Shown here: positions 1,500 through 37,494 of the stretch, piece by piece
Numbering within the stretch: position 1 is the stretch's first letter
Layout of the letters: each line of letters starts with the position of its first letter
Origin: an uncultured Bdellovibrionales bacterium
Lineage (GTDB): Bacteria > Patescibacteriota > Minisyncoccia > Moranbacterales > UBA2206
NCBI GenBank assembly: GCA_964567695.1
Contig: CAZMNQ010000003.1
Span: 1 to 37,776 of the forward strand
Direction of reading: 5' to 3'
DNA length: 37,776 nucleotides
Notes under the pieces: generated by a model
Seen by the model: only the letters and a program-made list of their open reading frames with translations
Database searches by the model: none
What the model was told of the DNA's origin: nothing
Program-made: the position numbers and the translations under genes

Positions 1500-4124
1500 A
1501 TGCGAGAAATTTCCAAACAATTTGATTTCAAAGAGAGGGAAGGGAAAATTTACGCGCTTTGGGAGAAGAGTGGGTTTTTTAATCCGGATAATATAAAATC
1601 TTCTAACCTGCCTGCCGGTAGGCAAGGAAAATATTGCAATGTTTTGCCGCCACCGAATGCCAATGGCGAATTGCATATCGGCCACGCCAGCGGTTATGCG
1701 GTGATGGATATTTTCGGCCGTTTCGAACGGATGGGTGGCAAAAAAGTTTTGCTTTTGCCAGGCAAAGATCATGCCGGCATCCAGACGCAAGTTGTTTTTG
1801 AGCGAAAAATAAAAGAAGAGCAAGGGATAATTCGCCAAGAAATGGGCCGGGGAAAATTTTACGCGGCTTGTTATGATTTTTGCATGGATCGCTCGAACTA
1901 TATGCGCTCGCAGGAAAAGAAAATCGGTATCAGCGCGGATTGGTCGCGGGAAAAATTTACACTGGATCCGGACGGATTGAAAATCGCGCTGGAGACTTTT
2001 GTAAAAATGTATAAAGATGGTTTGGTATATAAGGGTAATCGGATTATCAATTGGTGTTCGCGTTGCGCGACAGCTTTGAGTGATGTTGAGGTGGAGCACA
2101 AAGAAAGAGAGGGAAAATTATATTATATCAAATATCCAATCAAAGATTCCAAGGAATTCATTGTGGTGGCGACAACTCGTCCGGAAACAATGTTGGGAGA
2201 CTCTGCTGTGGCAGTTAATCCAAAAGACAAGAGATTCTTGGGTTTTATCGGCCAGAACTTGATTTTGCCATTGCAAAACAGGGAAATTCCCGTGATTGCC
2301 GATCGGCGAATTGATATGAAATTTGGAACCGGTGCGGTGAAGATTACGCCGGCGCATGATCCATTGGACTGGCAAATTGGCAAGGATCATAAATTGGAAG
2401 AAATTTTTGTCATTGATGAAAAAGCTAAAATTACGGAAGCCGGCGGTGAATATGTCGGTCTGGATGTTTTGGAGGCCAGAGAAAAAATTGTAGCCGATTT
2501 GCAAGGGCTGGGATTTTTGGAAAAAGAAGAATCTTTGACTAATGCTGTTTCTGTTTGTGAAAGATGTAAGACTATAATTGAGCCGTTGATTTCAAACCAA
2601 TGGTTTGTGTCGGTGGACTCGGAAAAATATTCCTTTAAGAAAAAAACTTTAGAGATGATCAAGTCCGGCAAGGTTGAGATTTATCCGGAAAATTTCAAAA
2701 AAATTCTCATCCATTGGTTAAATAATTTGCAGGATTGGTGTATTTCACGACAAATATGGTGGGGACCGCAGTTTCCAGTGTGGTATCGTGGCGAAGAGAT
2801 TTATGTCGGACTGGAAAAACCCAAAGGCAAGGATTCCGACTCCGCCAAGGCTACGACGGGCAAGTGGATTCAGGACGAAAATACTTTGGACACTTGGTTT
2901 TCTTCAAGTCAGTGGCCATATACAGCACTGGGTTATCCCAACGGAAAAGACTGTAAAAACTTTTATCCAACCGACGCTATGATTACGGGTCGTGATTTGT
3001 TGTTCTTTTGGGCAGCAAGAATGTTGATGATGGGTGGTTATCGTACCGGGAAAGTTCCTTTCAAAAATCTATATTTTACTGGCTTAATTTTGGACAAGGA
3101 TGGGCATAAATTTTCCAAGTCGCGAGGCAATGGCATTGACCCGCTAGAAATCATTGAAAAATATGGCGCGGATGCACTGCGTTTGAGCTTAGTGATGGAT
3201 ATTGCGCCGGGACAAGACGCGCGGCTCTATGAGGAAAAAATTGAAAGCTTCCGCAATTTTGTGACCAAGCTGTGGAATATTTTCCGCTATTGCAAGCAAT
3301 CGGATGAAAATTTTGCTTTGGTGGAAAAAATAAGCAAAAAAGATTTGAAAACTTTGTCAGACAGATGGATTGTTTCTGAATTGGAAGAGGTGACAAAAAA
3401 AGTTACACAATGCATGAAAGACAAGCAGATTTCTTTGGCGCAGGACGCATTGCGCAAATTTACTTGGGATAGTTTCGCTGATTGGTTCGTTGAAATAAAT
3501 AAACTGGAAAAGAATACTAAGGTTTTGGGCTATGTTCTGGACAAAATTTTGAAACTTTGGCATCCGTTCACGCCTTTTGTGACAGAGGAAATTTATCAAA
3601 TTTTGAATAAGAGTGAAGATATTTTGATGATGGCTAAATGGCCGAAAAGTGAAAAGAAATTTATTGATGCCAAGGCGCAGGCTAATTTTGCCGATCTGCA
3701 AGAATTGATTGCAAAAATTCGAAATATTCGGGCGAGTTATCACATTAATCCAGCGGAGTTGATAGAGGCGTATGGCAAGCTTAAGACCGAAAAAGAAATC
3801 GTGGAAAAACTCGGTCGAGTTAAAATTGAAACTAAGATTGCCAAAGAGAAAATGACCCAAATTTCTACTCGCAAGAGATCATTGCAACTGAATATCTCCA
3901 AATCGATAGATGTGGAAAAAGAAATTATTGCTTCAGCCAAAGAAATTCAAAATTTGACACAACTTGTGGCCAAAAACGAAGGTATGTTGAAAAACAAACA
4001 GTTTGTGGCTGGAGCGCCCAAGGAAATTATTGAGGCAACAAAGACAAGATTAGAAGAATATAAGGAAAAATTGGAGGTGCAAGCAGCGCTTAAGAATAGC
4101 CTAGAACAGCTTAAAAGAACTTAA
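1500..4124 (+). CDS. valS: Valyl-tRNA synthetase
   Basis: 874 aa. HIGH motif PPPNANGELHIGHA, KMSKS-type KFSKSRGN, DTWFSSSQWP and a C-terminal coiled coil. Carries a 21-nt palindromic insert near the N-terminus (1607-1627). Confidence 0.95.
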   Translation: MREISKQFDFKEREGKIYALWEKSGFFNPDNIKSSNLPAGRQGKYCNVLPPPNANGELHIGHASGYAVMDIFGRFERMGGKKVLLLPGKDHAGIQTQVVFERKIKEEQGIIRQEMGRGKFYAACYDFCMDRSNYMRSQEKKIGISADWSREKFTLDPDGLKIALETFVKMYKDGLVYKGNRIINWCSRCATALSDVEVEHKEREGKLYYIKYPIKDSKEFIVVATTRPETMLGDSAVAVNPKDKRFLGFIGQNLILPLQNREIPVIADRRIDMKFGTGAVKITPAHDPLDWQIGKDHKLEEIFVIDEKAKITEAGGEYVGLDVLEAREKIVADLQGLGFLEKEESLTNAVSVCERCKTIIEPLISNQWFVSVDSEKYSFKKKTLEMIKSGKVEIYPENFKKILIHWLNNLQDWCISRQIWWGPQFPVWYRGEEIYVGLEKPKGKDSDSAKATTGKWIQDENTLDTWFSSSQWPYTALGYPNGKDCKNFYPTDAMITGRDLLFFWAARMLMMGGYRTGKVPFKNLYFTGLILDKDGHKFSKSRGNGIDPLEIIEKYGADALRLSLVMDIAPGQDARLYEEKIESFRNFVTKLWNIFRYCKQSDENFALVEKISKKDLKTLSDRWIVSELEEVTKKVTQCMKDKQISLAQDALRKFTWDSFADWFVEINKLEKNTKVLGYVLDKILKLWHPFTPFVTEEIYQILNKSEDILMMAKWPKSEKKFIDAKAQANFADLQELIAKIRNIRASYHINPAELIEAYGKLKTEKEIVEKLGRVKIETKIAKEKMTQISTRKRSLQLNISKSIDVEKEIIASAKEIQNLTQLVAKNEGMLKNKQFVAGAPKEIIEATKTRLEEYKEKLEVQAALKNSLEQLKRT
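1607..1627. repeat. Family P1 palindromic core, degenerate copy, in frame inside valS
   Basis: CCTGCCTGCCGGTAGGCAAGG differs at 2 positions from the P1 consensus CCTGCCTGCCGGCAGGCAGG. It encodes LPAGRQG in the variable segment just before the HIGH motif. Confidence 0.7.
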
Positions 4125-4195: not shown

Positions 4196-5476
4196 ATGTC
4201 TAAGATAAAAAAGATTTTTGCCAGGGAGATTTTGGATTCACGGGGTAATCCGACAGTGGAAGTGGAAGTTGAATTGGAGTCGGGAATTAAAGCTGTGGCA
4301 GCGGTGCCGTCAGGCGCTTCGACTGGAATTTTTGAGGCTTTGGAATTGCGAGATGGCGATAAGAAAAGATTTAGTGGGTTGGGAGTTTTGCAAGCCGTGG
4401 AGAATGTGAATGAAAAAATCCAAAAAGTTGTGGTTGGTATGGAAGTGGAAGGTCAAATTGAAATTGATCAAAAAATGCTGGAATTGGATGGAACGGAAAA
4501 TAAAACTAATTTGGGAGCCAACGCAATTTTAGGTGTCTCACTGGCTGTTTGCCGCGCCGCGTCTGTTGAGGCTGGCATACCGTTGTATAAATATATTTCT
4601 AAGGCCTACAAACTACCTGCCTGCCGGACAGGCAGGAAAACCACGGGCTTTAAAATGCCCATTCCCATGTTTAATATCATCAATGGCGGCAAGCACAGTG
4701 ATTCAGGACTTTCAATTCAGGAATATAAGTTGGTACCCAATGGCATTAAATCGTTCAAGGAGCAATTCCGTGCTGGCAGTGAAATTTTTCATAAATTAAA
4801 AGATATCTTGGCTTCTGAGGGACAAAGCGTGGCTGTGGGTGATGAAGGTGGTTTTGCGCCTCGCCTGGAAAGCAACTCCAAACCCTTGGAACTGATTAAT
4901 CGTGCTATAGAAGAAGCCGGTTATAAAAAAGGAAAGGAAGTCAGTACGGCGATAGATGCGGCGGCTTCATCTTTTTTTGACGAAAAAGAAGGACAATATA
5001 TTTTCAAACCGGAAAGCAACGGCATCACTCGTGAAATGTTGGTGAATATTTATAGCGAATGGATAAATAAATATAATGTAATGTCAGTTGAGGACGGTTT
5101 GAATGAGCAAGATTGGGAAGGCTGGCGCGCGATGGAAGAAAAAATTGGAAAGACGGTGATGACAATTGGCGATGATCTCTTGGTGACCAATGTAAAAAGA
5201 TTGGAAATAGCGATCAAAGAAAAAGCGTGCAATTCTGTTTTGATCAAGGTTAATCAGATCGGCACCCTAACAGAAACGATGGCGTGCATAAAATTGGCCA
5301 AGAAAAATAAGATGCGAATCGTCATTTCGCATCGTTCAGGCGAAACCACTGATGACTTCATAGCCGACCTAGCCGTGGGCGTGCAAGCCGACTACATAAA
5401 ATCCGGCTCCCTTTCCCGAGGCGAGCGAATTTGTAAATATAATCGCTTGTTGAGGATTGAGGAAGAAATAAAATAG
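4196..5476 (+). CDS. eno: Enolase (phosphopyruvate hydratase)
   Basis: MSKIKKIFAREILDSRGNPTVEVEV..., SGASTG, NIINGGKH, IKVNQIGTLTET and SHRSGETTD are textbook enolase motifs. Carries a 21-nt palindromic insert (4616-4636). Confidence 0.95.
   Translation: MSKIKKIFAREILDSRGNPTVEVEVELESGIKAVAAVPSGASTGIFEALELRDGDKKRFSGLGVLQAVENVNEKIQKVVVGMEVEGQIEIDQKMLELDGTENKTNLGANAILGVSLAVCRAASVEAGIPLYKYISKAYKLPACRTGRKTTGFKMPIPMFNIINGGKHSDSGLSIQEYKLVPNGIKSFKEQFRAGSEIFHKLKDILASEGQSVAVGDEGGFAPRLESNSKPLELINRAIEEAGYKKGKEVSTAIDAAASSFFDEKEGQYIFKPESNGITREMLVNIYSEWINKYNVMSVEDGLNEQDWEGWRAMEEKIGKTVMTIGDDLLVTNVKRLEIAIKEKACNSVLIKVNQIGTLTETMACIKLAKKNKMRIVISHRSGETTDDFIADLAVGVQADYIKSGSLSRGERICKYNRLLRIEEEIK
4616..4636. repeat. 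Family P1 palindromic core in frame inside eno
   Basis: CCTGCCTG-CCGGA-CAGGCAGG. It encodes PACRTGR, within the LPACRTGRK segment, in the loop preceding PIPMFNIINGGKH. Confidence 0.75.
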
Positions 5477-27225: not shown

Positions 27226-28332
27226 ATGACTAAAGGTGACGCAAAAAAAGCTGATGCAATTTTATTATATTCAGTTTTTGGATTGATTATTTTTGGCCTA
27301 ATCATGATTGCCAGTGCTGGAGTCGGCTATTCCTTAACGCATTTCGGAGATGAATATTATTTTCTCAAGCGGCAACTATTATTTGGTGTTTTACAAGGCT
27401 TGCTCATCATGAGTATTGTAAAAAACATTGATTATAGGATTTGGAGAAAATTGTCCTTTCCATTTTTTGTCGCAAGTATAATTTTTCTGATCCTGGTATT
27501 TATTCCGGGGATTGGATCAAAAATTTATGGAGCAAATCGCTGGATTCAACTTGGGTTCTTTTCTTTTCAGCCGGCTGAAATGCTGAAAATATCTTTAATT
27601 TTATATTTAGCGGCTTGGCTTGAAAGCAGGCAGGAACGAATAAAAGACTTCTATGAGGGACTTGTGCCGTTCCTGATGATTGTTGCTCTGGTTAGTTTTC
27701 TTTTAGTGAAACAGCCGGATATCGGAACGCTGGGCATTATAATATTTATTGCCATGTCAATTTTTTTTGTTTCCGGTGCAAAAATTTCCCACATACTTTT
27801 AATGGGCGGGGCGGGTGTTATGTTGCTTTTTGCCTTGATTAAATTAGAATCATACCGAATGGACAGGTTTTTAGTTTTTTTGCATCCTGAGCTTGATCCG
27901 CGCGGAATTGGCTACCAGATTAACCAAGCGCTTCTGGCAATCGGCTCGGGCGGAATTTTTGGGGTTGGATTAGGCCATAGTATGCAAAAATTCAATTATT
28001 TGCCGGAACCGGCGGGCGATTCAATTTTTGCTATAATCGGGGAGGAATTGGGAATTTTCGGAGAATTTATTTTGATTGTTTTGTTTGTTATATTGGCGAT
28101 GCGCGGATTGCGTATTGCAAAACATGCTCCGGATATTTTTGGAAGATTGACGGCTGTCGGGATTGTTTCCTGGATAATGTTTCAAGCCTTCATAAATATC
28201 GCAGCTATTTCCGGTTTAATTCCATTAACTGGAGTTCCATTGCCATTTATCAGTTATGGAGGAACATCGGTCGTGTTTTTATTGACTGGCATTGGAATTT
28301 TATTGAATATTTCTAAACAAGCTAAAATTTAA
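27226..28332 (+). CDS. ftsW: SEDS-family peptidoglycan polymerase (FtsW by dcw context)
   Basis: 10-TM profile. RWIQLGFFSFQPAEMLK, PDIGT, GLGHSMQKFNYLPEPAGDSIFA, PLPFISYGGTS. Confidence 0.8.
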   Translation: MTKGDAKKADAILLYSVFGLIIFGLIMIASAGVGYSLTHFGDEYYFLKRQLLFGVLQGLLIMSIVKNIDYRIWRKLSFPFFVASIIFLILVFIPGIGSKIYGANRWIQLGFFSFQPAEMLKISLILYLAAWLESRQERIKDFYEGLVPFLMIVALVSFLLVKQPDIGTLGIIIFIAMSIFFVSGAKISHILLMGGAGVMLLFALIKLESYRMDRFLVFLHPELDPRGIGYQINQALLAIGSGGIFGVGLGHSMQKFNYLPEPAGDSIFAIIGEELGIFGEFILIVLFVILAMRGLRIAKHAPDIFGRLTAVGIVSWIMFQAFINIAAISGLIPLTGVPLPFISYGGTSVVFLLTGIGILLNISKQAKI

Positions 28333-28392: not shown

Positions 28393-28469
28393 CTTGAAAA
28401 TTTAGTAATTGAAGATTGATTGTAAATTCCTGCCTGCCGGCAGGCAGGGAAAATTGTAAATTGAAAATT
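28393..28469 (+). repeat. Family P1 full-length element (core 28429-28448), intergenic between ftsW and murG
   Basis: CTTGAAAATTTAGTAATTGAAGATTGATTGTAAATT-CCTGCCTGCCGGCAGGCAGG-GAAAATTGTAAATTGAAAATT. Perfect 20-nt palindrome. The arms are homologous to the copy inside miaB. Confidence 0.8.
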
Positions 28470-36042: not shown

Positions 36043-37494
36043 TTAAACGATTTCTCCTTCCAAATTCCAAATGCTAACTTTAGTAATTTTAACTTTTATA
36101 ATCTTGCCAATCAGAGATCCCTCGACAAGTTCGGGATGACAATCGTTACTGATTGTCATTTTGACATTTTTTCCGGTGCGGGTTTTGCCGAAATAAATAT
36201 GGTGCTTTCCTAGAGCTAAGCTCTTGGAATCCAAGAGCTTAGCTCTAGGAGAACTTTCCTTTTCGATCAGGATTTCGACAGTCGTGTTGAGGAATTTTTT
36301 GCTATTTTTCAGCGCGGTCTTTTTCAGGATTTCATTTAAAAATTGTTCGCGACGGGCTTTTTCGGTTTTGGAAACTGAGTCTTTCATATTCCAAGCCGGT
36401 GTGCCGGGGCGGGGGGAAAATTGGCCAAAGAAAACCATGTCGTAACCGACTTTTTCCATGATTTCCGCAGAGTCTAAAAATTGTTTTTTGGTTTCACTTG
36501 GGAAGCCGACAATGATATCGGAAGTGATGACGGCTGGCACGCCCGATTTATTTTTTTTGAAAGCGGCTTGAATTTTTTTAACTAAAATCAAATATTCTTG
36601 CGCGGTGTATTTGCGATTCATTTTTCTGAGGACTTCATCATTGCCAGCTTGGATGGGCAGATGAAAAGCTTCGCAAACTTTTTTGCATTTCGTTACTGTT
36701 TCAATCATTTCTGGCGACACATCTTTCGGGTGATTGCTGACAAAGCGAATCCAAAATTTTCCCGGGATGGCGTTGACTTTTTTTACGAGCTTAGAAAAAT
36801 TTATTTTGCCATCCGAGTATGAATTAACATTTTGTCCAAGCAAAGTTATTTCTTTGTAGCCTTTTTTCACTAGATTTTTTACTTCATAAATTATTTCTTC
36901 CGCCGGTCTGGAAACTTCCCGTCCACGAGCATAGGGCACGACGCAGTAGGCGCAGAAATTGTTGCAGCCGGTCATAATCGGCACAAAAGCTTGATATGCA
37001 TTTGTAAGTTTTGGTTTAATGGATAGATAAGAGATATTTTCTTTGCTTAGTTCGATATTTTTTTGTGCCGAAATTTTCAATTTACAATTTACAACCTTGC
37101 CTGCCGGCAGGCAGGTTTTCAATGAATTTTCAATGATAAAATTTTCAAACAGCTCAAAATTGTTAATAGGGGAAAATAAATCAACTTTATTTTTTAGTCT
37201 TCTTTGCACATCTTTGCGGTTGGCGAGACAACCAGTTAAAACAATCTTGATTTTTGGATTAGCCTTTTTGAGATTATGAACTTGTCCATAGACCCGATCT
37301 TCGGCCATTTGGCGCACCCCACAGGTGTTGAAAATGACCAAACCTGCCTTCGCTAAGGCTTCGGCAGGCAAGTCAGCATTTTCGTTCCTAGTAAGTGGTT
37401 CTAGTCCTTGTGATTCCAGAAAACTGGCAATCCGCTCACTGTCTGAATGGTTCATCTGGCAACCAAAAGTTTTGATAGAGTATGTTTTATTCAT
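36043..37494 (-). CDS. miaB: tRNA-i6A37 methylthiotransferase (radical SAM MTTase)
   Basis: TFGCQMNHSDSE and FNTCGVR (N-terminal cluster), GCNNFCAYCVVPYARGRE (radical SAM CxxxCxxC), C-terminal TRAM domain. Contains at least three palindromic in-frame inserts. Confidence 0.9.
   Translation of the reverse strand: MNKTYSIKTFGCQMNHSDSERIASFLESQGLEPLTRNENADLPAEALAKAGLVIFNTCGVRQMAEDRVYGQVHNLKKANPKIKIVLTGCLANRKDVQRRLKNKVDLFSPINNFELFENFIIENSLKTCLPAGKVVNCKLKISAQKNIELSKENISYLSIKPKLTNAYQAFVPIMTGCNNFCAYCVVPYARGREVSRPAEEIIYEVKNLVKKGYKEITLLGQNVNSYSDGKINFSKLVKKVNAIPGKFWIRFVSNHPKDVSPEMIETVTKCKKVCEAFHLPIQAGNDEVLRKMNRKYTAQEYLILVKKIQAAFKKNKSGVPAVITSDIIVGFPSETKKQFLDSAEIMEKVGYDMVFFGQFSPRPGTPAWNMKDSVSKTEKARREQFLNEILKKTALKNSKKFLNTTVEILIEKESSPRAKLLDSKSLALGKHHIYFGKTRTGKNVKMTISNDCHPELVEGSLIGKIIKVKITKVSIWNLEGEIV
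36116..36159 (-). repeat. Hairpin-containing in-frame insert in the miaB TRAM domain
   Basis: ATGACAATC-GTTACT-GATTGTCAT hairpin at 36136-36159, next to CCCTCGACAAGTTCGGG. Encodes TISNDCHPELVEGS between conserved V.M and LIGKIIKVKI. Confidence 0.55.
36208..36250. repeat. Near-perfect 41-43-nt palindrome in frame inside miaB
   Basis: CCTAGAGCTAAGCTCTTGGA-A-TCCAAGAGCTTAGCTCTAGG: 20 of 20 pairs around a single central base, and each arm is itself palindromic (AGAGCTAAGCTCT). Encodes SPRAKLLDSKSLALG. Confidence 0.75.
37072..37149 (-). repeat. Family P1 full-length element (core 37095-37115), 78 nt, in frame inside miaB
   Basis: Minus strand reads TTTGAAAATTTTATCATTGAAAATTCATTGAAAA-CCTGCCTGCCGGCAAGG-TTGTAAATTGTAAATTGAAAATT. 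It shares ATTGTAAATTGAAAATT and the left arm with the intergenic copy at 28393-28469. Encodes FENFIIENSLKTCLPAGKVVNCKLKI. Confidence 0.8.

Follow-up and report, generated by a model that had tools for sequence, protein, structure and literature searches.

The sole enolase gene of a 1.1-Mb Moranbacteria genome very probably carries a recent, lineage-specific insertion of a short GC-rich palindrome, P1, which keeps the reading frame and is most likely read as the seven residues PACRTGR in a flexible linker of the enzyme. The frame is kept because the copy is 21 nt long and sits on a codon boundary. Positions refer to the window, the whole 37,776-nt stretch of DNA that was analyzed.

The Palindrome in the Enolase Gene

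Direct reading of the window places CCTGCCTG-CCGGA-CAGGCAGG at 4616-4636 of the plus strand, where a sequence-only reading had reported it. The palindrome measures 21 nt, with 8-bp arms and a 5-nt loop, and coincides exactly with enolase codons 141-147 (CCT GCC TGC CGG ACA GGC AGG, encoding PACRTGR), within the peptide YKLPACRTGRKTTGF and immediately before PIPMFNIINGGKH. Its occurrence goes far beyond chance: when the window was shuffled 100 times with dinucleotides preserved, no shuffle gave a match at ≤3 mismatches, and the arm CCTGCCTG is found 7 times in the window against 0.46 expected. The features concerned are the following.

4616..4636, plus strand: 21-nt P1 palindrome, an in-frame insert encoding PACRTGR at enolase residues 141-147 (sequence, shuffles, orthologue alignment, fold, filled/empty comparison)
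4196..5476, plus strand: enolase (phosphopyruvate hydratase) gene, 426 aa, otherwise intact (Pfam, PDB match, invariant columns)
4607..4660, plus strand: interdomain coil, codons 138-155, following the last N-domain helix (130-137) and preceding the first barrel strand (156-166), hosting the insert (AlphaFold2)

The host ORF is the only enolase match detected in its own genome (G000; 1 match). Pfam assigns Enolase_N (PF03952) to residues 4-134 (E 2e-57) and Enolase_C (PF00113) to residues 153-425 (E 9e-104), leaving residues 135-152 unmatched, and the protein matches the solved enolase PDB 9no2 with an E value of 3.6e-135. Every column that is invariant across all 53 aligned enolases is retained, for example E176, D216, E217, D254, E299, D326, K351, H379 and K402; these and like columns we take to be the catalytic residues. 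With an Enolase_N domain, an Enolase_C TIM barrel and conserved catalytic and metal residues, the protein belongs to the enolase family.

The same reading had labeled this copy a core-only P1, and the label is fair, as AAATT-type repeats are absent on its flanks. The core is the unit and the enolase copy no truncated form, because the state free of flank repeats is the commoner one, with repeats on both sides of just 15 of the 56 non-ORF copies. GC-rich hairpins can cause local sequencing trouble, and this general concern is all that could speak for an assembly or sequencing artifact, for which no specific support was found. Against it, the insert is in frame, is shared by six protein variants on several contigs from JGI, ENA, NCBI and Logan, occurs in two separate metagenome contigs, one of them with a nearby A-to-V difference, and is present in contigs of all four public runs. 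The probability of an artifact is therefore negligible.

Recency, Fixation and Recurrence of the Insertion

The enolase alignment comprised the best 120 of 7,996 enolase matches, and the closest of these (P0002, 95% identity) lacks exactly the seven residues PACRTGR: it reads KL followed directly by KTTGFKM, where the window reads KL-PACRTGR-KTTGFKM. PDB enolases show gaps of 8-12 residues at this position of the alignment. None of the 29 relatives' enolase loci read contains the insert, the same-genus G002 being among those without it. The segment had been suspected to be an insert relative to other enolases, with an alignment proposed as the check and equal length as the outcome that would count against it; the length difference found here bears the suspicion out. 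At the DNA level, alignment of the filled site with the empty sites of six relatives leaves a 21-nt gap that equals the palindrome. This filled/empty alignment contains no target-site duplication, the junction placement being ambiguous by ±1 nt.

In the enolase tree, P0001 groups with the insert-free P0002 as its sister (100% support), and PACRTGR is kept in all six cluster members that cover the loop. Contigs from all four public runs bridge the site and show no deletion allele, though contigs drop rare variants and a rare empty-site allele is possible. Of the 24 runs listed for the organism, none is of RNA. The enolase insertion is recent and fixed.

The same enolase codon boundary has been hit independently in other lineages. 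In L036 and L038 another 21-nt variant, CCTGCCTCGCCGGCAGGCAGG, lies precisely there, a near-perfect palindrome is found at this boundary in three lineages, and a single origin of the PA...GR rows is rejected (p-AU 2e-53). In two older clades, of 5 and 6 rows, all rows keep an insert of similar length and drifted sequence, the palindrome having decayed while the extra residues stay. The peptides vary by lineage (PACRTGR, PASPAGR, PAYRSGR, QSASRRT, SAKGGPAGG). Enolase offers a clean natural experiment: separate lineages have gained exact, dated insertions of seven residues at a single interdomain linker, where older copies are decaying. It presents repeat DNA as a source of protein length variation and marks insertion-tolerant linkers.

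Protein and RNA Context of the Seven Residues

Mapping the insert onto an enolase structure, another check that had been proposed, was carried out on an AlphaFold2 model (mean pLDDT 85.9, pTM 0.88). The insert falls in the one low-confidence coil of the model, at the junction of N-domain and barrel: residues 144-149 are the only segment predicted below 50 pLDDT, and the block 141-150 averages 47. The ribosome most likely reads the 21 nt as PACRTGR, which would add seven residues to the coil joining the N-terminal domain to the first TIM-barrel strand. Since this coil is predicted to lie at the N-terminal end of the first strand, on the side remote from the catalytic face, normal enzyme function is expected.

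PACRTGR might instead be an adaptive, positively charged surface loop, serving as a partner-binding patch or in a moonlighting role, with the palindrome as just its raw material. Fixation in the cluster and in the public runs, retention of the drifted insert in both older clades and independent gains at one boundary would all suit such a loop. However, the region is predicted to be disordered, the inserted residues vary from lineage to lineage, other genes translate the same DNA into unrelated peptides, and neutral drift in a tolerant linker would also retain length, so that we attach little probability to an adaptive loop. Retention in the two older clades fits neutrality, and equally a useful loop.

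As RNA, the enolase 21-mer alone folds with -13.8 kcal/mol, and this hairpin is retained in the MFE fold as well as the centroid fold of its 121-nt mRNA context. Together with the position of the stem at the N-domain/barrel junction and the near-perfect palindrome at this boundary in three lineages, this could hint that the hairpin is kept for acting in enolase mRNA, either by a ribosome pause that lets the N-domain fold first or by changing the mRNA half-life, effects on translation and stability that the earlier reading had also raised. Yet the structure of the 121-nt context is unremarkable (z = -1.69), 12 of 200 shuffles folding equally well. Of the genic copies, 13 have the more stable fold in the antisense RNA and 6 in the sense RNA, with both equal in 2 (13 of 19 informative); the enolase copy has -13.8 for sense versus -15.0 for antisense. 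Moreover, the sister P0002 and 29 of 29 relatives read manage without the hairpin, the palindrome has decayed in older clades that still keep the extra residues, and most P1 copies are non-genic. No evidence here supports an mRNA-hairpin function of the enolase stem, and we regard such a function as quite improbable.

A terminator role of the enolase hairpin was also considered and rejected; it was flagged on the minus strand alone, with 3 terminator-like sites versus 1.2 ± 1.2 in shuffles, and the consensus match is without significance.

P1 as a Repeat Family in the Genome

P1 comprises a 20-nt perfect palindrome, (CCTG)2-CCGG-(CAGG)2, and 21-nt derivatives of it. The genome holds 77 copies at ≤2 mismatches and 82 hairpins at ≤3 (arm-matching scan), and the strict pattern CCTGCCTN{6,7}AGGCAGG occurs 56 times versus 0 for a reversed control. 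Three further members in the window illustrate the range of settings.

1607..1627, plus strand: second in-frame 21-nt family member, CCTGCCTGCCGGTAGGCAAGG, in the valyl-tRNA synthetase gene, read in another frame as (N)LPAGRQG (family scan, orthologue loci)
28429..28448, no strand assigned: perfect 20-nt palindrome CCTGCCTGCCGGCAGGCAGG in an intergenic spacer, with AAATTG-type repeats on its flanks (repeat scan)
37095..37115, minus strand: 21-nt family member (CCTTGCCTGCCGGCAGGCAGG on the plus strand) inside a miaB-type gene, nested in AT-rich repeats (UPF0004 and Radical_SAM domains)

The valyl-tRNA synthetase (ValRS) copy is common to the same-genus G002 and absent from 13 other ValRS loci at ≥65% identity (L164-L176). 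Filled and empty sites differ by a clean 21 nt, with no target duplication and a junction ambiguity of ≤1 nt. Because G002 has the ValRS copy but not the enolase copy, the two insertions took place at different times. P1 is a DNA-level repeat family, read in different genes in three frames and on both strands (LPAGRQ, CLPAGR, PACRQAG, PAYRTGR, LPTGQAG). For annotation, this means that segments of the LPAGRQ or PACRTGR type in CPR proteins are repeat DNA, not conserved motifs.

Copies deep in intact ORFs of ≥200 aa number 21 of 77, compared with 1,934 of 3,000 random 21-nt windows (64%). While 18 of these 21 genic copies are 21 nt long, elsewhere that length is found in 12 of 56 copies and 20 nt in the other 44, a contrast that is partly forced by the definition of 'inside an intact ORF'. 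Only two observations are free of this circularity: none of the 56 other copies gives back a long ORF when excised, and the in-frame genic copies are numerous. Pfam domains are present in 19 of the 20 other host ORFs, so that with enolase 20 of the 21 genic copies have Pfam-recognized hosts, among them SecA, LigA, RecG, UvrC, UvrD, Fpg, RNase HII, NrdD, aminoacyl-tRNA synthetases, LepA and MiaB. The genic copies thus lie in frame, in recognizable genes, and since no gene is split by a 20-nt copy they are most likely translated.

The 21 nt could also be missing from the mature product, with P1 removed from the RNA like an intron or skipped by the ribosome, as are the 'byp' elements of some yeast mitochondria. 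The hairpin is compact and stable, and the flanks of at least 8 P1 copies resemble tRNA D- or T-loops, which at first sight recalls non-canonical tRNA introns. However, these tRNA-like pieces are decayed tandem pseudo-copies beside intact tRNA genes, and P1 as an intron of functional tRNAs was rejected, as ARAGORN predicts the same 33 tRNAs whether or not P1 is excised. Removal or bypass would furthermore tolerate 20-nt copies in genes, at odds with the prevalence of 21 nt among the genic copies and with the outcome of the excision test. We see only a very slim chance that the seven residues are absent from the protein.

We infer that P1 spreads as selfish DNA, moved in trans by an activity that weakly favors A/T-rich flanks, the flanks of P1 reading N-A-W-T-T outward. 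Selection would then purge frame-breaking copies and copies in structured parts of proteins, leaving 21-nt copies in linkers, and the enolase insert would be neutral or nearly so. A target-site PWM made from non-ORF copies ranks 9 of 21 genic sites among the best-scoring 10% of positions in their gene (p about 1e-4); for the enolase site the rank is 87 of 1,253. Because the PWM is weak (≤0.37 bits per position) and 86 other enolase positions have equal or higher scores, target preference does not fully account for recurrence at exactly this site in three lineages, and positive selection for the loop could play a part here. CPR bacteria have among the smallest and most streamlined genomes known; this tiny groundwater CPR genome tolerates about 80 apparently selfish hairpins, about 20 of them inside essential genes (enolase, SecA, DNA ligase, tRNA synthetases).

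Comparison with Known Repeat Systems

In the account by Di Nocera et al. (2013, PMC3733652), intragenic REP elements are short (20-40 bp) GC-rich palindromes with many copies, mostly extragenic and in some cases inside known genes, many of them for replication or repair; different REPs occupy about the same recB site in two Xanthomonas species, more than half of the intragenic inserts described are dimers or groups encoding 20-30 residues, and the units carry a conserved GTAG or CGTC tetranucleotide at one end. P1 is alike in being short, GC-rich, multicopy (77 copies in 1.1 Mb) and mostly extragenic (56 of 77 outside intact long ORFs), in having LigA, RecG, UvrC, UvrD, Fpg, RNase HII and NrdD among its hosts, and in its patchy abundance between related genomes, and the enolase hot spot parallels the shared recB site. 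P1 differs in that single in-frame 21-nt units are the rule, whereas REP inserts are mostly dimers or groups. P1 units start with CCTG and end with CAGG, with no terminal GTAG or CGTC; GTAG is confined to an internal position in the CCGGTAGG variant, and the enolase copy lacks it. Neither does P1 show the REPtron arrangement of a RAYT gene flanked by the repeats. Finally, P1 is a perfect palindrome whereas REPs are imperfect, and its 20-mer recurs unchanged in many phyla, while a REP family is usually limited to one species or genus.

Rickettsia palindromic elements (RPEs), reportedly described by Ogata et al. in 2000, are said to be selfish palindromes lying in frame in many unrelated housekeeping genes. 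P1 likewise is a repeated palindrome in frame in many unrelated genes, with exact inserts relative to orthologues in enolase and ValRS, and at 20-21 nt it is set apart from RPE-1 to RPE-8 by length. RPEs are translated and tolerated through landing in surface-exposed parts; they measure about 100-150 bp, add tens of residues and are confined to Rickettsia, whereas P1 adds 7 residues in a free-living or episymbiotic CPR lineage and extends across phyla.

The GC clusters of yeast mitochondria are also GC-rich palindromes in an AT-rich genome, prefer AT-rich DNA and are occasionally in frame (var1). To our knowledge, they have no linked transposase and their mode of movement is unresolved. P1 shares with them the scattered GC-rich palindromes, the AT-rich targets, the occasional in-frame copies and the lack of a linked transposase. 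GC clusters are organellar, 30-50 bp long and of several sequence classes, whereas P1 is bacterial and shorter. MITEs (reviewed in PMC10969869) are small, non-autonomous and present in many copies, presumably mobilized in trans, and have terminal inverted repeats around an internal segment and target-site duplications. P1 is similar in being small, multi-copy and presumably trans-moved, and dissimilar in consisting of nothing but the hairpin, which has no separate terminal inverted repeats, and in the absence of target-site duplication in the enolase and ValRS comparisons. Among intragenic REP/RPE-type elements, P1 is a new and very short variant.

Distribution of P1 and Candidate Mobilizers

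P1 copy number is patchy, ranging from 0 to 56 across 41 relatives, of which 27 are positive, and exact copies of the 20-mer are found in many phyla as well as on viral contigs. Rfam covariance models gave 0 matches at gathering score, both for the window and for 9 loci of other phyla that carry P1. A search of the literature outside subscription journals and bioRxiv supplements found nothing on the P1 20-mer, its sub-strings, 'LPAGRQ' or palindromes inside CPR genes. An identical 20-mer in many phyla without a linked transposase poses the question of how so minimal an element moves. We tentatively propose, as a reading that is on balance unlikely, that P1 is an undescribed ultra-short (20-nt) mobile hairpin with no gene, terminal repeats or target duplication, moved in trans by an unrecognized activity common to Patescibacteria, Omnitrophota, Bacteroidota, Planctomycetota and others. 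It would possibly be ferried by phages and be site-selective, reaching the same enolase boundary in at least three CPR lineages. If so, P1 would be a general source from which essential proteins of streamlined genomes gain new loops of seven residues.

The genome encodes four Y1_Tnp homologues (29-33 bits). None of the four is flanked by P1, and only one has P1 on the same contig, about 5 kb away; they carry palindromes other than P1. The RAYT model NF047646, whose cut-off is 80, gives the one homologue scanned (C63) a score of 29.9, and a search of the Y1_Tnp protein against PDB sequences gave no match at E up to 1. Across the 41 relatives, presence and absence of Y1_Tnp and P1 are associated (table 18/9/4/10, Fisher p = 0.026; Spearman rho 0.51 on counts), and G030 has 21 P1 copies and no Y1_Tnp homologue. 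Y1/RAYT was set aside as the mobilizer of P1, its link to P1 being weak: the correlation is modest and phylogenetically confounded, and none of the homologues has P1 at its flanks. P1-dense viral contigs were rejected as carriers of an enzyme as well, with Y1_Tnp or GIY-YIG in 0 of 5 P1-bearing records, which are mostly fragments.

Striking juxtapositions of P1 with GIY-YIG genes exist in L210-L213, in a WWE3 genome and in G000:C27. In two Bacteroidota genomes no such adjacency was seen, the contig numbers for G044 and G045 having been matched without certainty. Among the first 40 GIY-YIG genes listed (±400 nt), P1 is present in 2, one of which was known beforehand, and on this count the idea that small GIY-YIG nuclease cassettes end in a P1 hairpin was rejected. 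The link between nuclease and P1 is weak; that between nuclease and tRNA is real, with tRNA genes in 21 of the same 40 windows.

The enolase palindrome is an insertion

The palindrome CCTGCCTG-CCGGA-CAGGCAGG, which the sequence-only reading had placed in enolase, is indeed present there, between the two Pfam domains of the ORF (Enolase_N, residues 4-134; Enolase_C, residues 153-425; residues 135-152 have no match).

4196..5476, + strand: enolase ORF, 426 aa, Pfam Enolase_N and Enolase_C
4616-4636, + strand: enolase copy of P1, a family of 20/21-nt palindromes; 21 nt, exactly codons 141-147, CCT GCC TGC CGG ACA GGC AGG, encoding PACRTGR

In 100 dinucleotide-preserving shuffles of the window, no match to the palindrome arose at ≤3 mismatches. 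The host gene is the single enolase detected in the window's own Moranbacteria genome (G000); its top PDB match has an E-value of 3.6e-135, and it retains all columns invariant among 53 aligned relatives.

The same reading had taken the segment for an insert relative to other enolases, which the comparisons bear out. The closest among the best 120 of 7,996 enolase matches, nearly all from named or unnamed Moranbacteria/Parcubacteria, is P0002 (421 aa, 95% identity), which passes from SYKL directly into KTTGFKMPIPMF, where the window protein reads AYKL-PACRTGR-KTTGFKMPIPMF. Solved enolases show gaps of 8-12 residues at this place. An enolase match was found in 40 of the 41 nearest species-representative genomes, and the insert is absent from all 29 relatives with a readable loop (30 loci fetched); the loop of the same-genus genome G002 is KTFGFPVKFKLP, without insert. 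Upon DNA alignment of three filled and six empty sites, the 21-nt gap coincides with the palindrome, with a junction slidable by one base and no target-site duplication. Insertion is thus the supported origin of the enolase palindrome.

In a tree of 54 enolases, built with the loop columns left out, the window enolase groups as sister of P0002, which lacks the insert (100% support), indicating that the insertion is younger than the split from P0002. PACRTGR is kept in all six loop-covering members of the window protein's 90% cluster, and the identical 21 nt occur on two metagenome contigs, one with an adjacent Ala-to-Val change. The site is bridged in contigs, which cannot reveal rare variants, of four out of four public runs, and no deletion allele was seen in them.

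An AlphaFold2 model from a 53-sequence alignment (mean pLDDT 85.9, pTM 0.88) places the insert within a coil (residues 138-155) flanked by helix 130-137 and strand 156-166 (PIPMFNIINGG), the first barrel strand of enolase. The pLDDT drops below 50 solely at residues 144-149, and block 141-150 averages 47. Active sites of TIM barrels lie at the C-terminal ends of the strands. Since the insert is placed ahead of the N-terminal end of strand 156-166 in the predicted fold, it should be remote from catalysis.

Recurrent insertion at the enolase linker

Extra residues occupy the same loop in other enolases among the best 120 of 7,996 matches. A JGI metagenome scan at the protein level (P-A-x3-G-R, seven codons, PxPMFN), which did not presuppose the palindrome, returned four loci, two of them from the window's own lineage. 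In the others, L036 (alignment row P0079) and L038 (P0037), the very same enolase codon boundary is occupied by another 21-nt variant of P1, CCTGCCTCGCCGGCAGGCAGG, with junctions AAAATT-P1-CAA and AAACTA-P1-AAA. The PA...GR rows, a group named from the alignment prior to tree building, require four changes on the enolase tree, and their union in one clade is rejected (p-AU 2e-53). Every member of the five-row clade of P0037 and the six-row clade of P0079/P0106 has an insert, some recognizable (PAYRSGR) and others drifted (QSASRRT, SAKGGPAGG, KASARGG), indicating that older inserts are retained at the site while their sequences degenerate.

The outward flank of P1 reads N-A(63%)-W-T-T. A weight matrix trained solely on the 56 copies outside ORFs, with ≤0.37 bits per position, ranks 9 of the 21 genic insertion sites in the top 10% of their own gene's positions (binomial 9.5e-5) and the enolase site 87 of 1,253. 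This enrichment points at a target preference contributing to P1 site choice. At ≤0.37 bits per position, target preference alone is too weak for the exact enolase recurrence, and tolerance of the linker must account for the remainder.

The P1 family in the genome

Both G000 (171 contigs, 1.098 Mb) and the window have a GC content of 39%, and the window holds three further P1-related copies.

1607-1627: P1 copy in valyl-tRNA synthetase (ValRS)
28429-28448: perfect 20-mer P1 in a spacer
37095-37115: P1 copy in a miaB-type gene

Hairpins with arms CCTGCCTG/CAGGCAGG at ≤3 mismatches number 87 in G000 versus 4-10 in five shuffles; 82 of the 87 have loops of 4 or 5 nt, and 77 are found at ≤2 mismatches. 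The strict pattern gives 56 matches, its reversed control 0. The consensus is the perfect 20-mer (CCTG)2-CCGG-(CAGG)2, to which the 21-nt forms add one base in the loop (CCGGA or TCCGG) or in an arm (CAAGG, CATGG, CCTTG). The label "core-only", given to the enolase copy from sequence, is accurate, though it describes the usual state of P1 copies. Genic copies are read in three frames and on both strands (LPAGRQ, CLPAGR, PACRQAG, PAYRTGR, LPTGQAG), which marks P1 as repeated DNA rather than a protein motif.

P1 inside genes

We counted a copy as deep when it lay ≥25 codons from both ends of a stop-free frame of ≥200 aa. This holds for 21 of 77 P1 copies versus 1,934 of 3,000 random 21-nt windows. 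Eighteen of the 21 deep copies are 21 nt long, compared to 12 of the 56 others (44 of which are 20 nt; Fisher 3.7e-7), a contrast partly inherent in the definition, as a 20-nt insert breaks the frame. The converse test was therefore run by excising each of the 56 other copies: a long frame was restored in none, and there is thus no visible case of a gene interrupted by a 20-nt copy. Excision of P1 at the RNA level, or its bypass by the ribosome, is thereby disfavoured. The sequence evidence argues instead for genic copies that are probably translated, with frame-breaking ones purged.

Pfam domains are present in 19 of the 20 other host ORFs: WecG-type and two GT4 glycosyltransferases, RNase HII, RlmN, Fpg, SecA, LigA, NrdD, RecG, a class I aaRS, RsmH, UvrC, UvrD, LepA, an HI0933-like flavoprotein, PrmC, ValRS and MiaB. 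The copy lies between domains in Fpg, both GT4s, the aaRS, UvrD, MiaB and enolase.

The ValRS copy is older than the enolase copy. Its identical 21 nt occur at the equivalent place in G002, and it is absent from all 13 other ValRS loci at ≥65% identity (L164-L176), 11 of which are seven residues shorter at the site (e.g. SSKKYCN). L169 (genome G021) and L171 (G017) carry unrelated seven-residue inserts at the equivalent site, the former GC-rich and the latter including the palindrome GTCCGCC-TGG-GGCGGAC. Hence the ValRS loop, like the enolase linker, has been struck by more than one insert type.

At the RNA level, the enolase stem is predicted to form in its 121-nt mRNA context, which is not unusually stable (z = -1.69); the copy is predicted to fold at -15.0 antisense versus -13.8 sense. 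Among genic copies, the antisense RNA would be stabler in 13, the sense in 6, and both would be equal in 2 (p = 0.17). Rfam returned no family match, and the sole terminator-like call for the enolase hairpin falls on the opposite strand, within shuffle expectation.

Distribution and candidate mobilizing enzymes

The strict pattern occurs in 27 of 41 relatives, with 0-56 copies (reversed control 0-1); the window's genome ranks highest, followed by G012 (31), G030 (21), G040 (19) and G002 (18). The exact 20-mer is found in at least 123 stretches of species-representative genomes, spanning, among the matches listed, many Patescibacteria classes, Omnitrophota, Bacteroidota (with cultured Winogradskyella, Flagellimonas, Longitalea and Flavivirga), Planctomycetota, proteobacterial MAGs, Thermodesulfovibrio and Chloroflexi. 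IMG/VR contigs contain it in 40 stretches, and in one case seven copies fall within 29.5 kb.

G000 encodes four paralogous Y1_Tnp ORFs of 225-235 aa, none with P1 beside it. The one on contig C63 scores 29.9 against the RAYT model (cut-off 80), and its protein has no PDB sequence match at E ≤1. P1 and Y1 homologue counts correlate over the 41 relatives, which as kin are not independent (rho 0.51; presence/absence 18/9/4/10, p = 0.026), and a Y1 homologue is missing from G030 (21 P1 copies) and G031 (9 copies). Movement of P1 in trans by a Y1-type enzyme is conceivable and rather doubtful.

The Y1_Tnp-like genes each hold other palindromes in frame, of the form TTCCTAAAG...CTTTAGGAA or of the 25+25-nt GGAGGCTCAACCTCC type, and in three of four loci a further palindrome lies just downstream (L001:1263-1287, 1739-1761; L002:1743-1793; L003:1136-1160, 1623-1647; L004:1468-1490). 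The GGAGGYTSARCCTCC motif has 13 matches in G000.

Small stand-alone GIY-YIG genes (~80-120 aa; L213, L212, G000:C27:5692-5967, L216-L255) number 0-15 per genome in the 41 relatives. In G026, a GIY-YIG ORF stands between a 5' tRNA-Leu fragment, whose D-loop holds P1, and an intact tRNA-Leu that comes after it; this locus (L213:1-1201 = G026:C70:300-1500) resembles a homing cassette that targets a tRNA and restores it. Two small GIY-YIG genes are bracketed by P1 in G030, and the sole one of a complete WWE3 genome begins ~20 nt after P1. As a test of the nuclease as P1 mover, the windows of ±400 nt around the first 40 genes by E-value (L216-L255) were largely negative, with P1 in just 2 and tRNA genes in 21. 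We read GIY-YIG cassettes as elements that home to tRNA genes, with defunct tRNA pieces left behind in which P1 builds up; that they move P1 is improbable. None of five P1-bearing viral records encodes Y1_Tnp or GIY-YIG. P1 is probably moved by something other than either enzyme type.

In G000, at least eight P1 copies occupy D-loop- or T-loop-like positions within degenerate, incomplete tRNA copies, which are arrayed in tandem next to an intact tRNA gene of matching type and in some cases contain a second GC-rich insert (G000:C27:5968-6186; C37:1520-1683; C84:4300-4455; C101:1310-1495, 3050-3250 and 3290-3444; C106:150-332; C23:3938-4130). ARAGORN calls the same 33 tRNAs in G000 with or without P1 excision.

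Relation to known repeats

In-frame RPEs are established in Rickettsia, and yeast mitochondrial GC clusters are what we take to be the nearest functional analogue of P1. Intragenic REPs are likewise established, many in replication/repair genes (PMC3733652). P1 behaves like intragenic REPs and Rickettsia RPEs; however, it has neither the GTAG/CGTC end tag nor the REPtron of a REP, fails the length criterion of an RPE, and lacks the TIR-plus-TSD of a MITE. Neither its sequence nor palindromes inside CPR genes were found in the text of openly accessible articles. The enolase copy is most likely a nearly neutral passenger, an unusually short selfish intragenic palindrome. New here are an enolase insertion that is exact, dated and located in the protein structure; the rule of 21 nt for copies in genes, together with its converse test; the finding that other enolase lineages were hit independently at the same site; a quantitative test of target-site choice; and a largely negative test of the nuclease lead.

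Sequence context of P1 copies

AAATT/AATTT repeats flank both sides within 25 nt in 15 of 56 copies outside ORFs, 3 of 21 ORF copies and 190 of 5,000 random positions. Some copies are preceded or followed by extra CCTG/TAGGCAGG units, e.g. GGCAGGTAGGCAGGTAGGCAGG (G000:C120:1517-1570, C7:14765-14820, C1:27540-27600), which suggests slippage expansion of the tetranucleotide arms. Three copies share the longer context ATGGGCGCTTTCATAGTGCG-P1-CTTTCGCATGC (G000:C32:7543-7600, C42:4884-4940, C78:3868-3925), a larger repeated unit. P1 frequently lies within the loop of another widespread palindrome, with the form GTCATTCC(N)...(N)GGAATC(C), giving a hairpin in a hairpin (G000:C44:6800-6860, in the RecG gene; L211:455-510; L215:590-660; G000:C52:3455-3515), in one case in frame within recG. 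A lone half-arm CAGGCAGG at 27627-27634 (+ strand) of the window, within ORF 27226..28332, could be chance or the remnant of a decayed copy.
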